A stretch of 37,507 nucleotides of DNA from a virus (taxonomy: Duplodnaviria > Caudoviricetes), in the IMG/VR virus record IMGVR_UViG_3300038391_000041, positions 1-37,507 of that record. One strand, given 5' to 3'. The notes under the pieces are model-generated. The model was not told the DNA's origin, made no database searches, and worked only from the letters and a program-made list of their open reading frames with translations. The translations under genes were made by a program, and so were the position numbers. Shown piece after piece: positions 3,772 through 33,763 of this stretch (position 1 is its first letter; each line of letters starts with the position of its first letter).

Positions 3772-4088
3772 TTCAGTTTAGTTAATTCAGCATTTACTTG
3801 TCCGGCAATATCTACAGGCCACATTGATTCAATTGAGTAGTACATAAGCTTCAGATGAGACTCATGGATTGGCTTCTCAAACTTGAAGTTTTTCTCCTGG
3901 ATAGCTTTGGCCAGTTTCCATGCAGCTTCTTTATCTCCAGGCTCTCTTTTAGGCTGGTTTGTATACTGAGACTGAAGCAGAGCAAGCTTGCAGCATTCAG
4001 CATAAGAAAGAGGCTCTTGGTTGCTATCCTGAATGTCCTTGCCCTCTATGGTCTTGACATTAGTGTTGTAGAAATCAATTGTTTTCAT
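3768..4088 (-). CDS. Hypothetical protein, possible tail-fibre chaperone
   Basis: Overlaps neighbours in the operon; ATG at 4088 preferred over 4112 because it reduces overlap. Confidence 0.55.
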   Translation of the reverse strand: MKTIDFYNTNVKTIEGKDIQDSNQEPLSYAECCKLALLQSQYTNQPKREPGDKEAAWKLAKAIQEKNFKFEKPIHESHLKLMYYSIESMWPVDIAGQVNAELTKLK

Positions 4089-4524
4089 GTCCTGTGAATT
4101 TTTCAAAGTCATTGATTGAAATACTTTCCCCTATAACTATAAGGCCTCTTCCAGCCTGTAGATCCGCACCAAGCACATAAGGAAGGCCCATCTCTAGGGT
4201 TTTCTTTCTGTTGTTTACAATATCAGTGTCATCATCATAGCTGAGGTTTAAAGCGGTGTAGAGCTGCTTTGCCTCAACAGGATTGATCCTTCTGTTGAAG
4301 GTCTCAATCAAGTGATACTCATAGTCTGTGAACTCATCTCCATTCTCATCATAATTGGTGAACGGAGTTTCATAGTAGTATCGGCCTTTGATGACAATGT
4401 GCTCCTTGCCCTCATCTTCAACCACTGTCTGATCAGAGTGGATCCTGGCTATTGGTTTACACTGAACTCTTTGAGTTGAGCCCACTGCAATGGTTATCTC
4501 TTTTTTACAAATCAGTGCTATCAT
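4075..4524 (-). CDS. Hypothetical protein, possible tail-fibre assembly protein
   Basis: ATGA-coupled directly downstream of the fibre-like gene. Confidence 0.55.
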   Translation of the reverse strand: MIALICKKEITIAVGSTQRVQCKPIARIHSDQTVVEDEGKEHIVIKGRYYYETPFTNYDENGDEFTDYEYHLIETFNRRINPVEAKQLYTALNLSYDDDTDIVNNRKKTLEMGLPYVLGADLQAGRGLIVIGESISINDFEKFTGHENN

Positions 4525-10368: not shown

Positions 10369-10574
10369 TATTCAGTATTGGACTCATTTTCAACTCTTTT
10401 GTAGTGCCAGATTGCGGCTATCCTTGAGCACCAGACTTCATCATCCATCTGACTGGCATCCTTTCCATGCGTGTGGTAGAATAGAAAGTCATCCAGTGCT
10501 CTTATAGAGCATTCTAGCAGATCTGAGGAGTCTCCTGGAGTATCATCATACAGGAGCTCCTTTAGAGCTTTTTT
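10368..10574 (-). CDS. -1 frameshift extension of the tail assembly chaperone (gpT-like); not in the ORF track
   Basis: A AAA AAG at 10574-10568, then a hairpin at 10560-10527; the -1 frame is open for 66 codons (ALKELLYDDTPGD...VWCSRIAAIWHYKRVENESNTE) to a TAA overlapping the tape-measure ATG. Confidence 0.85.
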   Translation of the reverse strand, partial: KKALKELLYDDTPGDSSDLLECSIRALDDFLFYHTHGKDASQMDDEVWCSRIAAIWHYKRVENESNTE

Positions 10575-19235: not shown

Positions 19236-19635
19236 GAGCAGGCTTGATAGCATTAACATGCTCTCTGGATTTGATGATAATCTGATCCAAGAGGTAATAA
19301 ATGAACAGCAGGAAATTATCCGGAGCTACCTGGAGGACAGGTATGACATGGAGGTTGAATATGCCAAGACTGGAGATGACAGAAATGTTCCGCTTTTGTC
19401 GTGCCTCAAAGTGTTCTCTGTTCATCAAATGCACGCCAGGCTAAACCACCAGATCAATGAGTCTGTAGAGCTCCAGTATGACAGATCCTTGAAGTGGCTC
19501 AAAGATGTGGCTAGTGGGAAAGCTTCACTTTCTGGACTCAATCCTAAACACGGAGAGGACTCTGATGGAGATGGCATTCCAGATGGAGACTCCAGCCTGG
19601 TATCCTCAAACACAAAGTATCCAAATAAATTCTAA
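19198..19635 (+). CDS. Head-tail adaptor (Mu gp36 / DUF1320-like)
   Basis: YLTPQEL, IRSYLEDRYD, YDRSLKWLKDVASGK. Confidence 0.85.
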   Translation: MPNYLTPQELKTKSRLDSINMLSGFDDNLIQEVINEQQEIIRSYLEDRYDMEVEYAKTGDDRNVPLLSCLKVFSVHQMHARLNHQINESVELQYDRSLKWLKDVASGKASLSGLNPKHGEDSDGDGIPDGDSSLVSSNTKYPNKF

Positions 19636-19640
19636 GAGAG

Positions 19641-20873
19641 ATGTGGAACCCGTTCAAAAGAAATAGCAAGGAGGAAGGAGCTGGCCCTCAAGCGAAAGCC
19701 AGCCCAAAGTCAAAAGCTGTCAAGGTTGTTGCAGATCTCGACCGCTTGAATGAAGACAGGCTCAGAAAAGAGCTTGATGACTGGACTTATGCCAGAGATG
19801 TCAGACTGGATGTCCACAGGCCACAGACCTACCTGCTCCAGGAGCTCTACAATGATGCTCTTGTTGACTCTCATTTGATGTCTGCAATCCAGTCCAGGAT
19901 ATTGAGGATTGTCAACAAGAAGTTTGTCATCTTGAATGACAAAGAAGTCAATGAAGATAAAACCAAGTTCATTGAAGCTCCTTGGTTTAGGGATATGCTA
20001 AGGCACTGGATGTGGAGCATCTTCAGAGGATACAATCTCATTTATGTCAAAGAGTCTACTCCAGGAAGGATCATCAGTGTGGATGTGGTACCCAATAGCC
20101 ATATCATCCCTGAAAGAAGGGTCATCATCAAAAATGTAACGGACACAGATGGAGGCCTGCCTTTTGACAAGCTGGATGGTCAGATGCTTTATGCTCAAGC
20201 TTATGATGCTATTGGGCTCCTCAACACAGCTGCTCCATATACCATCCTAAAAAGACACAGCTGGGCCTCCTGGGACAACTTTGAGCAGCTCTTTGGAGTG
20301 CCCATCAGAGTTGGGAAGGTGATCAACAGCTTTGATGGGAAGAGAATGAGGGAAATGCATTCAGATCTTGAGAATATGGGCCAGAGCCCTGTTGTAACTA
20401 TGCAGCAAGGAGAAGAGATTGAGATCATCCACTCCAATCAGACAGATGCATTCAAGGTATTCCAGGAGAAGATCAAGCTTGTCAATGAAGAGGTCAGCAA
20501 ATTGATCAACGGACAGACAATGACAGCTGACAACGGAAGCTCTAAGTCTCAAGCTGAAGTCCACCAAATGACTCAAGATGAAATCACCAGGGCAGATGAA
20601 AAGGAGATTCTGGACTGGCTTAATGAGCAGCTCAAGCCATTGATGGTAAAATATGGATACTCGTTGACTGATGCTGATGTTTTTGGAATCCATACTTCAG
20701 AGGATCCAAAAGAGTCCATTGACATTGACTTCAAACTCTCTCAAGCCGGATACAACTTGAGCCCTGAGTACATTGAGAAAAAGTATGGTGTCGAGTTGGA
20801 CAAGGATCAACCCACTAAGACTCCAGATAATGAGCCTAGCAACCTGAAAGCGCTTTTTGATTTTTTCGACTAA
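19641..20873 (+). CDS. Portal protein (Mu gp29 / DUF935)
   Basis: DSHLMSAIQSR, WDNFEQLFGVPIRVGK, EVSKLINGQTMTADNGSSKSQAEVH. Confidence 0.93.
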   Translation: MWNPFKRNSKEEGAGPQAKASPKSKAVKVVADLDRLNEDRLRKELDDWTYARDVRLDVHRPQTYLLQELYNDALVDSHLMSAIQSRILRIVNKKFVILNDKEVNEDKTKFIEAPWFRDMLRHWMWSIFRGYNLIYVKESTPGRIISVDVVPNSHIIPERRVIIKNVTDTDGGLPFDKLDGQMLYAQAYDAIGLLNTAAPYTILKRHSWASWDNFEQLFGVPIRVGKVINSFDGKRMREMHSDLENMGQSPVVTMQQGEEIEIIHSNQTDAFKVFQEKIKLVNEEVSKLINGQTMTADNGSSKSQAEVHQMTQDEITRADEKEILDWLNEQLKPLMVKYGYSLTDADVFGIHTSEDPKESIDIDFKLSQAGYNLSPEYIEKKYGVELDKDQPTKTPDNEPSNLKALFDFFD

Positions 20874-20892
20874 GCCCCAGCTCGGTTGGGGC
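20861..20892 (+). promoter_or_regulatory. Predicted -1 ribosomal frameshift signal linking portal to MuF
   Basis: T TTT TTC (20861-20867), 6-nt spacer, hairpin GCCCCAGC-TCG-GTTGGGGC (20874-20892); the -1 frame is open from 20861 into MuF. Confidence 0.7.
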
Positions 20893-21001
20893 ATCAACTA
20901 GAATCTTTTACTCTCCTTTTGTCAAAGCCCTTGGAGGCAAGTTTCCTTGGGCAGACTATCAAGATGCCATCAAGAAGATAGTCCCAAAGGTTAAAAAAGG
21001 C

Positions 21002-22147
21002 ATGAGATCATTTCACAAGAACCAGGACCAACTATCTCCTGGATTGTTTGAGGCCAATTTTGATCCTCTAGTTGAAGCCTCCGGAATAAATCTGAAGTAC
21101 AACTATGGGCCTAACATGGTTTTTGATCACATGATGAGTCAGAACCTGGGCCACTTTGCAGCCAGGAAGACCCTAGCTCAGCAAGCTGCTTTAACCAGAG
21201 CTTTATTTGACCAGGATGGCAAGCTCAGACCCTTTGTGGAGTTTGAGAAAGAAGCCAAGCCAGTCCTCAAGGATTATAACCGGAATTGGCTAGCAGCTGA
21301 ATACAATACCACCACCAGATCTGCAAGGATGGCCACAGACTGGAGAACAGCACAAGAGGAGAAGGATCTGTTCCCAAACATCAAATACCTTCCTTCAAGA
21401 TCTGCAACTCCTAGAGAAGCCCACAAGCCTTACTATCACATTATCCGGCCAGTTGATGATCCATTCTGGGACACCCACCTTCCACCTAACGGCTGGCAGT
21501 GCCTTTGTGGATTTAAGACCACTGATGAAGAGGTCACTGACATTCCTGAAGATCTGGAGCCTCCAGAGTTTGGCTTCAGGCAAAATGTGGGAAAGACAGC
21601 CAAGCCCTTTGACAACTCACATCCCTATTTTTCTCAAAGGTATCCAGAGAGAAGAAAGCTCATGGCTGAGATGATGGAATCCATGCCTTACAACATAGAT
21701 GTTGATGGTGTGAAGGTGAGCCTTTGGGCAGATCCTTCAGACCTGGAGAGCAATCTGCAAGCAGCTCAGATATTTAAGGAGAGCTTTGATGATGTCCGGA
21801 TCATGCCTCACCATTTTGATGGCAGGAAAAATCCAGAGTATCTGATTGACCAGGTGCAAGGTGATCTGGTAGTTGCCCAGGGATCCACAATCAAGGGCTC
21901 ATTAAACAATGCACTCAGAAGGAAATACCAGCAGATGAGTGGCAAGTTTTACCTGGTGTTTAATGTGAATGCGTTAGCACTACCTGGAGAAGAGATCCTG
22001 GCAAGAGAGATCTATGGATCACTGAAGCAGAGAAGACGGTGCAACAAGCTGATCATGGTTATGGATGAGAGCTTGTATGTTGTGGTTGATCAAGGGATGA
22101 ACCTGGAGGAGATCCAGGAAGCAATTAAAACAGCAAGAGGCAACTGA
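21002..22147 (+). CDS. MuF (SPP1 gp7-like) head protein with C-terminal CdiA-like nuclease domain; frame open upstream to 20861
   Basis: YNRNWLAAEYN, REAH, RPVDDPFWDTHLPPNGWQCLC, FRQNVGKT, HPYF; C-terminus ESNLQAAQIF..VRIMP..KNPEYLIDQVQGD..K..LVFNV. Confidence 0.88.
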   Translation: MRSFHKNQDQLSPGLFEANFDPLVEASGINLKYNYGPNMVFDHMMSQNLGHFAARKTLAQQAALTRALFDQDGKLRPFVEFEKEAKPVLKDYNRNWLAAEYNTTTRSARMATDWRTAQEEKDLFPNIKYLPSRSATPREAHKPYYHIIRPVDDPFWDTHLPPNGWQCLCGFKTTDEEVTDIPEDLEPPEFGFRQNVGKTAKPFDNSHPYFSQRYPERRKLMAEMMESMPYNIDVDGVKVSLWADPSDLESNLQAAQIFKESFDDVRIMPHHFDGRKNPEYLIDQVQGDLVVAQGSTIKGSLNNALRRKYQQMSGKFYLVFNVNALALPGEEILAREIYGSLKQRRRCNKLIMVMDESLYVVVDQGMNLEEIQEAIKTARGN

Positions 22148-22192
22148 TGAAGCTGCCTCTTGAGAGGTCGGGGCCTGTAGCTCCAACCGGGT
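22125..22192 (-). ncRNA. Candidate small antisense RNA (~65-70 nt) downstream of the MuF toxin domain
   Basis: Minus-strand TATCTTTG -7 element at 22204-22197; hairpin 22188-22166; terminator-like hairpin 22162-22134 followed by CTGTTTT. Confidence 0.45.
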
Positions 22193-22208
22193 AGTACAAA
22201 GATACAAA

Positions 22209-22700
22209 ATGAGTAGCAAACTATCAGAGGACCTAGAAAAGCTCCAGAGAGATCTGAAGAAGGCTATATCATCGGAGATCCCAAGGAGAGCAGGTAAGGC
22301 CGGAGTTGACTACTTCAGAGAGTCTTTTGTCACTGAGAGTTTTGATGGTGTAAAATGGCCAGCTGTCAAAAGGAGAGATCCTGGGAGTAAGTGGTACGGC
22401 TTTCAGTATAAAGGCAAAGGCAGTCCAAGATTTTCAGCTGCTGCAACCAGGAGAAGAGTGCTGACTGGATCCACCGGTGAGCTTGGAGATTCCATCAACT
22501 ACATAGTCAGACCTTTTGCCACCATCTTCAGGAGTGACAAGCCCTATGCTAAAGTGCATAATGAGGGCTTGATGGCCAAGGTCTTTGGGAAGCACCCATT
22601 CAAAATGAAGAAGAGGCAATTCATGGGTCCTGCAAAACAGCTAGACAAGAAAGTTGACAAGATTGTTGATGATGCTATTGATAGGGCTTTTACCCGATAA
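22209..22700 (+). CDS. Virion morphogenesis protein (Mu gpG / P2 gpS-like)
   Basis: ESFDGVKWPAVK, LTGSTGELGDSI, PYAKVHNEG, KRQFMG. Confidence 0.85.
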   Translation: MSSKLSEDLEKLQRDLKKAISSEIPRRAGKAGVDYFRESFVTESFDGVKWPAVKRRDPGSKWYGFQYKGKGSPRFSAAATRRRVLTGSTGELGDSINYIVRPFATIFRSDKPYAKVHNEGLMAKVFGKHPFKMKKRQFMGPAKQLDKKVDKIVDDAIDRAFTR

Positions 22701-22713
22701 CTGATAATATGGG

Positions 22714-22953
22714 CTATTTATCCGATTTGTCCGGACTGGAGCTGAATAGATCCAGCTGCTTGGATGGTGCCTCCTTGTAGTGGCCAACTCCAAGGATGAT
22801 CTGCTGCACCGTTTTGGCACTGACATAATACTTTTCAGACAGATACTCCAGATAAGCAACGTACTTCCACTGAGGGTGCTTCTGACGCAGCTTGTCATAG
22901 TCTTTCTTGAGATCCTGGTCTCTCTTTTGCCTGAGTGATTCTTGACTATTCAT
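22714..22953 (-). CDS. Mor/C-like HTH transcription activator (candidate late regulator)
   Basis: RDQDLKKDY and LSEKYYVSAKTVQQII HTH; last gene of the early operon. Confidence 0.65.
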   Translation of the reverse strand: MNSQESLRQKRDQDLKKDYDKLRQKHPQWKYVAYLEYLSEKYYVSAKTVQQIILGVGHYKEAPSKQLDLFSSSPDKSDK

Positions 22954-33319: not shown

Positions 33320-33561
33320 GGGTGTACACTTAATGTGAAACAAAGTGTGCATTAATTGCGGTGAACCCCTAAAATGAGTGACAAATAAGTCACAGACAGC
33401 CCCGTTCTAGCCACTCTATTTCTATTAATGCTAATAAAATTAGGCTCTTTCAGAGTTTTGATGTCGTGTACATAAAGGGTCAGTTAAAGGCTATTTTGCT
33501 GCCAAAACACCCTTTTTTTTGTACATAAGCCCCCCGTAGCGGCCATTTGAAAACCACGTTA

Positions 33562-33597
33562 TGTCCCCCCAACTGTCCCCCCAACTGTCCCCCCAAC
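33562..33597 (+). repeat. Perfect tandem repeat, 3 x TGTCCCCCCAAC
   Basis: Read directly from the sequence. Confidence 0.95.
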
Positions 33598-33763
33598 TTT
33601 ATTTGTATGGTTATTTAGACATATTTATAAACGTGTTTTTACAACACGCATATTAATGCGCAATGCAGTCACAGCAAGCCCTGCAAGGCTTCTAGGTGTA
33701 TCTTTAAGTGATTTAAACGCTAGGGAGTAAAAACAGGCTAAATCAGCCATTTTAGAGCAAACG

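Follow-up and report, generated by a model that had tools for sequence, protein, structure and literature searches.

How does a Mu-like phage translate its minor head protein MuF when the gene, as called, begins 128 base pairs (bp) beyond the end of the portal gene? This question is raised by a 37,507-nucleotide (nt) stretch of a Caudoviricetes virus (IMG/VR record IMGVR_UViG_3300038391_000041, positions 1 to 37,507; hereafter the window), in which the portal gene and the downstream MuF gene both lie on the plus strand. Comparison with related loci makes it very likely that the ribosome shifts by -1 at the 3' end of the portal gene and that MuF is made mainly as an extension of the portal, giving a product of 835 amino acids (aa) beside the 410-aa portal.

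Anatomy of the portal-MuF junction

The window phage has the gene set of a Mu-like (transposable) phage, with transposase and ATPase, terminase, gp36-like adaptor, DUF935 portal, MuF and gpG neck genes, and its named relatives belong nearly all to the Bacteroidota. The portal gene (DUF935/Portal_Mu; 19641-20873) is an open reading frame (ORF) of 410 aa, which defines the 0 frame and matches Pfam family Portal_Mu (PF06074; E 3e-70) and the portal family phrog_113. The MuF ORF as called (21002-22147) encodes 381 aa, comprising a MuF domain (Phage_Mu_F, PF04233) and a C-terminal domain, and matches the minor head protein family phrog_220.

The first-pass annotation of this DNA, made from the letters without database searches, had proposed that a programmed -1 frameshift fuses the two proteins, and all of the junction elements that it described are found in the sequence. 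The portal ORF ends in GAT TTT TTC GAC TAA, so that a slippery heptamer T_TTT_TTC (20861-20867) stands in the portal phase and is followed by a 6-nt spacer, GACTAA (20868-20873), that includes the portal stop codon (20871-20873), and then by an 8-bp GC-rich hairpin (20874-20892), the predicted 3' stimulator. In the -1 frame, a TGA (20858-20860) sets the 5' bound of any possible shift site. Past this TGA, two Phe codons and 45 further codons (20861-21001) run without a stop into the ATG that ORF callers use as the MuF start (21002-21004), spanning the 128-bp gap (20874-21001) between the portal gene and MuF as called. The predicted portal-MuF fusion has 835 aa and a mass of about 96 kDa. In-phase heptamers within the last four codons occur in two of the 47 ORFs of the window phage, the portal gene and the gene of a predicted tail assembly chaperone. 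Rfam returned no match at its gathering score in five loci, and none near that score in positions 19600-22800 of the window.

Conservation of the heptamer and of the -1 frame

A single-sequence locus search in viral contigs returned no relative, whereas an alignment of 52 portal proteins, used as the query, retrieved 80, 74 and 71 loci from three collections (the viral loci being the best 80 of 178, and the metagenome loci the matches listed). These 225 loci (designated by L numbers) and the window made a set of 226, from which nine truncated loci were left out; the remaining 217 were reduced to 108 at 90% and to 38 at 70% portal identity. Many indels are present in L223, L224 and L225, and the portal and MuF genes are broken in L137; L223, L224 and L137 were retained among the 108 loci and excluded from the portal tree.

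An in-phase heptamer lies exactly one codon before the portal stop in 98 of the 108 loci, and within the last 0-3 codons in 101 of them (32/38 at 70% identity), against a background of 221 in 36,964 positions (0.6% per position); one of the 101, L087, is a chance match at the end of an in-frame fusion. Seven loci are misses (L016, L117, L075, L223, L224, L141 and L146). In L016 and L117 the heptamer is present a few codons further upstream, and L141 and L146, for which no adjacent MuF was found, have no heptamer and serve as negative controls. MuF lies within 600 nt of the portal gene in 103 loci, is in the -1 frame in 101 of these, and the -1 frame is open from the heptamer in 100. The first-pass annotation had named conservation of the heptamer, its phase and the open frame in relatives as the test of its proposal, and the proposal passed. 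The signal is also independent of the toxin tail: among 97 complete MuFs, 12 are shorter than 300 aa and have no C-terminal domain, and since all 12 keep the heptamer, the recoding appears to serve MuF itself.

Three heptamer classes were found, T_TTT_TTY, A_AAA_AAR and G_GGA_AAG (hereafter the T, A and G classes). By eye, most of 120 portal proteins listed end in FF-x or KK-x. When loci were sorted by this terminal peptide alone, the codons proved invariant: FF is encoded by T_TTT_TTY in 37/37 loci, KK by A_AAA_AAR in 38/38 and GK by G_GGA_AAG in 23/23, in genes where TTT makes up 68% of Phe codons and GGA 27% of Gly codons. Because codon choice is fixed in 98 of 98 cases, the constraint appears to act on the bases and their phase, not on the residues. 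On a FastTree portal tree, KK loci do not separate from GK loci, and the T class is spread over more than one clade; deep support in this tree is weak, and it was used only for class intermixing, not for the order of events.

A separate arrangement was seen in six copies of one Mu-like prophage (L141-L145 and L151) in a single Cyclobacteriaceae metagenome-assembled genome, where the portal gene has neither an adjacent muf nor a heptamer and a MuF-like match lies 1.3-2.7 kb downstream of it.

An RNA stem 3' of the heptamer

In the T class, the region downstream of the heptamer folds into a hairpin with a mean z of -2.08, compared to -0.25 and -0.20 in two control windows (n=36), and 24 of 36 loci fall below z -1.5, compared to 5 and 5 in the controls. 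The stem starts 5-6 nt past the heptamer in 22/36 loci. The arm at +6 pairs over at least 6 bp with downstream sequence in 32/37 loci (swapped arms, 18%), and there are 14 distinct 5' arm starts, among them reversed C-rich and G-rich arms.

The A and G classes have no short-window hairpin (z 0.0 and 0.25). A long-range stem, mostly enclosing about 55-75 nt, becomes visible in them only with a longer folding range, the arm at +6 pairing over at least 7 bp in 47/63 loci, compared to 4/63 for a distal control window and 24% for swapped arms. When the position of the 3' arm was fixed by the protein alignment, to avoid circularity, 45 of 61 loci paired at no fewer than 9 of 10 positions; in the main clade (49 loci, with 12 of a second clade set aside) 94.7% of cells pair, as against 25-56% when the arm is slid by 1-3 nt. 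Two synonymous third positions covary (30/4/1/12 and 25/1/0/14), and RNAalifold returned 11 pairs, 7 of them with two-sided changes, both sets of counts ignoring kinship. Most A- and G-class loci thus carry a covarying long-range stem of 11-12 bp, and 6 of the 14 loci of the second A-class clade have an alternative stem at +7.

Furthermore, the stem starts 6 nt past the heptamer even where the portal stop has moved or is gone (Hankyphage p00, L117, Porphyromonas phages and L087). Since its spacing tracks the heptamer in these cases, the stem appears to belong to the slip site and not to termination. Conservation of the hairpin had also been part of the proposed test, and a 3' structure is conserved in the T class and, with covariation, in the A and G classes.

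Two further features of this region were observed. Right after the portal stop of L044, L147, L040 and L218, the hairpin loop is enlarged to form extended perfect inverted repeats, which lie inside the coding -1 frame and keep its register. In A- and G-class loci, the loop of the long-range stem encodes a conserved LxYRxxCC motif at codons 8-16 past the heptamer (e.g. L024:4131-4190), often followed by His-rich stretches; the motif, which is not found in the clade of the window, is possibly a metal-binding or processing site in the portal-MuF linker.

Cultured phages and in-frame fusions

Eleven annotated loci were used for comparison with cultured phages and controls. In Hankyphage p00, T_TTT_TTC is followed after a 6-nt spacer by a GC hairpin of 6 bp, the -1 frame is open, and the portal stop lies 13 codons further downstream; L236 resembles it, and L235 has a standard T-class site. 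In the phages fF4 and Peternella_1, where the -1 frame is likewise open, an A-run heptamer lies 2-4 codons ahead of the portal stop. In FPSV-S1, lotta8-1, Mu and L233, by contrast, MuF is in the +1 frame and there is no usable heptamer. Capsid mass spectrometry of Hankyphage, as listed without peptide sequences in S6 Table of PMC12135933, includes three MuF peptides and 20 portal peptides. MuF is reported there from the 250-85 kDa gel slice, but small proteins, among them Gam, the adaptor and ThyA, are reported from it too, so that the slices are smeared and uninformative on the fusion.

Portal-MuF fusions also exist as single genes. An Atlas cluster of 64 proteins (representative, 838 aa; Portal_Mu in 100%, MuF in 72% and CdiA_C in 11%) matches the architecture of the predicted 835-aa product, phrog_35074 covers both the portal and the MuF halves, and a Porphyromonas phage encodes an in-frame fusion of 853 aa. 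Searches for longer proteins found few fusions (2 and 4), a result that says little about fusion frequency.

Five fused genes could be read at the DNA level: those of two Porphyromonas phages (L230:2902-5463 and L234:301-2862) and those of L087, L238 and L239, the last cut by the contig end. The junction heptamer is kept in all five, and the -1 frame closes after 26 (L230), 21 (L234), about 14 (L087, by hand), 3 (L238) and 4 (L239) codons. L230, L234 and L087 each have a clear stem at +6, and L238 and L239 do not. The Porphyromonas portal is sister to that of p00 on the tree and yet shares only about 30% identity with it over matched pieces; given this distance, the kept heptamer and hairpin are unlikely to be a fresh relic. 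The pattern is suggestive of an inverted, dnaX-like logic in which a slip would make the short portal, though shifted frames close soon by chance and three of the five fusions are single assemblies. If the inverted logic is real, both portal forms would be needed and the efficiency of frameshifting may exceed a few percent by a good margin, making it less apt to call the fusion a minority product, as the first-pass annotation did.

MuF translation and alternative explanations

The first alternative is that MuF is translated separately, either from the ATG at 21002 or from a start near the portal stop by translational coupling, with the stem controlling initiation or RNA processing and FF/KK being protein motifs. 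The ATG is present in the window and start-like codons are common in relatives, as detailed below, but they are not shared: 2 of 100 aligned loci have Met at the column of the window Met, where Ile, Leu or Val prevails, an ATG at or before this column is found in 17/100, and no single alignment column has a start-like codon in more than 22/100. The Leu codons right after the portal stop vary synonymously. MuF thus seems to be without a conserved start of its own, and on this ground the frameshift is probably the main route to it and not an add-on. Production of the fusion by frameshifting, as first proposed, is supported by the comparison.

The sequence between the portal stop and the called start points the same way. 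From the heptamer to the Met column, substitutions by codon position in the A and G classes (0.42/0.32/0.58) follow those of the MuF core (0.42/0.31/0.61), with a weaker coding signal in the divergent T class (0.59/0.54/0.68) and in the clade of four that includes the window (0.56/0.45/0.67). The 47 codons of the transframe stretch in the window (20861-21001), which align with L081, L001 and L002, are predicted to include helices 13-24 and 31-53, and an AlphaFold2 model (95-sequence alignment; mean pLDDT, the predicted local distance difference test, of 91) places Met48, encoded at 21002-21004, inside the second of these. Because the substitution pattern resembles that of the MuF core and a predicted helix spans Met48, we read the 128-bp "gap" as coding sequence that makes up the N-terminal part of the MuF moiety, as the first-pass annotation had supposed in explaining it by the open -1 frame. 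The called start is probably an internal Met, and a product started there would, on this model, lose most of a conserved helix.

Several observations weigh against the frameshift reading. An ATG, GTG or TTG is found at or before the window Met column in 73/100 loci, so that locus-specific internal starts are possible; in p00, an ATG overlaps the portal stop, and in Mu, FPSV-S1 and lotta8-1 MuF is initiated separately. In L075, of a Capnocytophaga cluster, the heptamer is replaced by C_CCC_CAG, a non-canonical sequence, and the -1 frame is open. U_UUU_UUN sites (U_UUU_UUA/U) are described in PMC5009743 as weaker slip sites than A_AAA_AAG in E. coli. Of the 14 loci of the second A-class clade, 8 show no stem at the usual distance from the heptamer, and the covariation counts at the two third positions take no account of kinship. 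The 73-nt stretch of the window is by itself no more stable than its shuffles (z -0.77), and the support for frameshifting consequently rests on conservation. The reading, strongly supported as it is, is comparative throughout, and the fusion product is predicted.

Separate initiation nevertheless leaves the main regularities unexplained. The FF, KK and GK codons and their phase are fixed in 98 of 98 loci, the peptides being unlike and the slip sites alike, and the stem follows the heptamer and not the stop. On account of the fixed codons and phase we consider separate initiation improbable as the general explanation, and some internal initiation could take place alongside frameshifting. In L075, near 4077-4089, the long-range stem is kept and a -1 stop just upstream restricts any slip to the C_CCC_CAG site, at which a single-tRNA slip is possible.

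A second alternative, that the fusion arises by transcriptional realignment, an extra base being inserted when RNA polymerase slips in the T or A run, could draw on the fact that two of the three heptamer classes are homopolymer runs of at least six bases. However, G_GGA_AAG has no long run and is used in 23 loci, all 98 heptamers keep phase with the portal codons, and the downstream stem stands at the 5-7 nt spacing expected for a ribosome, all of which make this explanation highly improbable. A third alternative is that prophage decay, or an assembly error in the homopolymer, has split a gene that was originally fused; the natural in-frame fusions and the position of the break within a T run might suggest this. 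The break, its phase and the stop are, however, common to about 100 diverged loci, cultured phages and isolate genomes among them, and contigs from three of four runs span the junction and agree there (two of these three possibly being the source of the window), so that conservation effectively refutes this alternative.

Returning to -1 frameshifting, we envisage that, with the ribosome paused by the stem, the two tRNAs would pair anew in the -1 frame, yielding plain and MuF-extended portals that may assemble together in one portal ring. Through the extended form, MuF would be tethered inside the head, along with its variable C-terminal domain, in a ratio set by the frameshift efficiency, and tethering by fusion would replace the non-covalent binding to the portal described for SPP1 gp7. 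Any figure for the stoichiometry of the fusion would merit much less confidence than the frameshift itself.

We also lean towards a broader interpretation, in which many transposable phages of the Bacteroidota, among them Hankyphage, which is widespread in the gut, use frameshifting to join MuF, with its exchangeable toxin-like cargo, to a fixed proportion of their portal subunits. The polarity would have flipped several times, Porphyromonas phages and others having an in-frame fusion from which a slip gives the short portal, so that a mixed portal ring would be the conserved requirement and MuF dosage would be tunable by single-base changes.

Relation to known recoding systems

The junction is very probably, on comparative grounds, a conserved functional -1 frameshift at the portal gene, that is, recoding of a known type at a gene for which we found no case described. 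No portal frameshift was found in the literature searched, most subscription papers and supplements lying outside it; the main text of Jamet et al. 2017 (PMC5576092) contains no occurrence of "frameshift", and "portal" is absent from the available text of PMC10885494 and from the first 300,000 of the 449,034 characters of PMC5009743. The first-pass remark that no description of such a join was known to it holds to that extent, while hard-wired portal-MuF fusions are already published, in Microbacterium phage clusters EA3, EA5, EA8 and EB (PMC7302621).

The closest parallel is the G/GT -1 frameshift of tail assembly chaperones in lambda and other long-tailed phages (PMC10885494 and PMC7302621, citing Xu, Hendrix and Duda 2004), in which a heptamer at the end of a structural-module gene likewise gives rise to two products, one short and one extended, at a fixed ratio, and in which G_GGA_AAG is used (PMC5009743). 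In the loci described here, in contrast, the site is in the portal gene and would append the whole of MuF, a virion protein family annotated in its own right and frequently equipped with a toxin-like domain; a 3' stem is conserved as well. The window phage has a G/GT-like site of its own, an in-phase A_AAA_AAG (10568-10574, minus strand) one codon before the stop of ORF 11131-10562, from which the -1 frame is open across the gap to the tape measure gene. This ORF is predicted to be the tail assembly chaperone, since it lies between tail-tube-like and tape measure genes, and its site to be an ordinary G/GT frameshift. The portal site, being in the portal gene and separate from that site, is not of the G/GT family.

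Frameshift-extended capsid or tail proteins are known from T7 (10A/10B), SPP1 (gp17.1*) and Listeria and Lactobacillus phages. As in 10A/10B and gp17.1*, recoding at the portal would give a C-terminal extension to some subunits of an oligomeric virion protein, but the known examples are not portals and their extensions are surface domains, not an internal head protein. In E. coli dnaX, a slip gives the short form (the tau/gamma logic), aided by a Shine-Dalgarno-like 5' stimulator, an element that was not seen here, no test having been aimed at it. In-frame fusions that keep the site would work in this direction, whereas in most loci here a slip gives the long form, and dnaX is a host replication gene, unlike a phage portal. 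The dnaX heptamer, A_AAA_AAG (PMC5009743), is that of the largest class in our set.

With respect to MuF itself, SPP1 gp7 is present in one or two copies per capsid and complexed with the portal (PMC5576092). The Microbacterium fusions and SPP1 gp7 are all-or-none arrangements (one ORF, or two ORFs whose products bind non-covalently), whereas the join predicted here is partial and set by recoding. In MuF polymorphic toxins, muf lies directly downstream of the portal gene and has variable C-terminal domains (Jamet et al. 2017, PMC5576092), and the MuF domain of the window is likewise encoded downstream of the portal.

If the frameshift is confirmed, the portal would become one of the few phage virion proteins for which recoding yields two forms, and a mechanism would be at hand to explain why MuF is found at the portal and in few copies, a long-standing open point. 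MuF starts would also be mis-annotated in a group of phages that includes the cultured Hankyphage, fF4 and Peternella_1. Furthermore, the junctions would supply natural -1 cassettes for the Bacteroidota, including the unusual long-range stem that encloses coding sequence.

The C-terminal domain of MuF and its surroundings

The C-terminal domain of MuF in the window (21674-22144, plus strand) has a predicted fold resembling CdiA_C, a tRNase-type nuclease, as indicated by Atlas features (0.87, taken as a lead) and by structure matches to PF18451 clusters. The top Foldseek match is 4g6v (TM 0.68 by target, E 0.012), Foldseek giving no match at E <=0.001; the profile match to 4g6v is weak (E 0.11), and Pfam returned nothing for this domain alone. 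The nuclease label is therefore one of predicted fold resemblance to CdiA_C. Among 95 aligned MuFs, 30 have a CdiA_C match, 18 a match to LPD3 and 3 to ADP-ribosyltransferase.

In MuF polymorphic toxins, an immunity gene directly downstream is typical. No immunity ORF follows muf in the window, where a 61-nt gap leads to a neck gene (22209-22700). A CAAAnnTA motif was observed in this gap, at 22197-22204, and in relatives 48-114 nt past the muf stop. It follows muf in 72 of 85 loci with a C-terminal domain, compared to none of 12 with short MuFs, which may represent few lineages (controls, 9 and 8 of 85). The motif is the reverse complement of the consensus of the Bacteroidota -7 promoter element, and it suggests an antisense promoter reading across the spacer into the 3' end of the toxin-like domain. 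As there is no immunity ORF, such a promoter is a candidate source of an RNA antitoxin or an antisense brake.

Finally, three non-coding GTCCCCCCAACT-like tandem units were noted near the probable prophage end, at approximately 33561-33640 of the window; this run precedes a host gene for a thermolysin-like protease with a type IX secretion signal.

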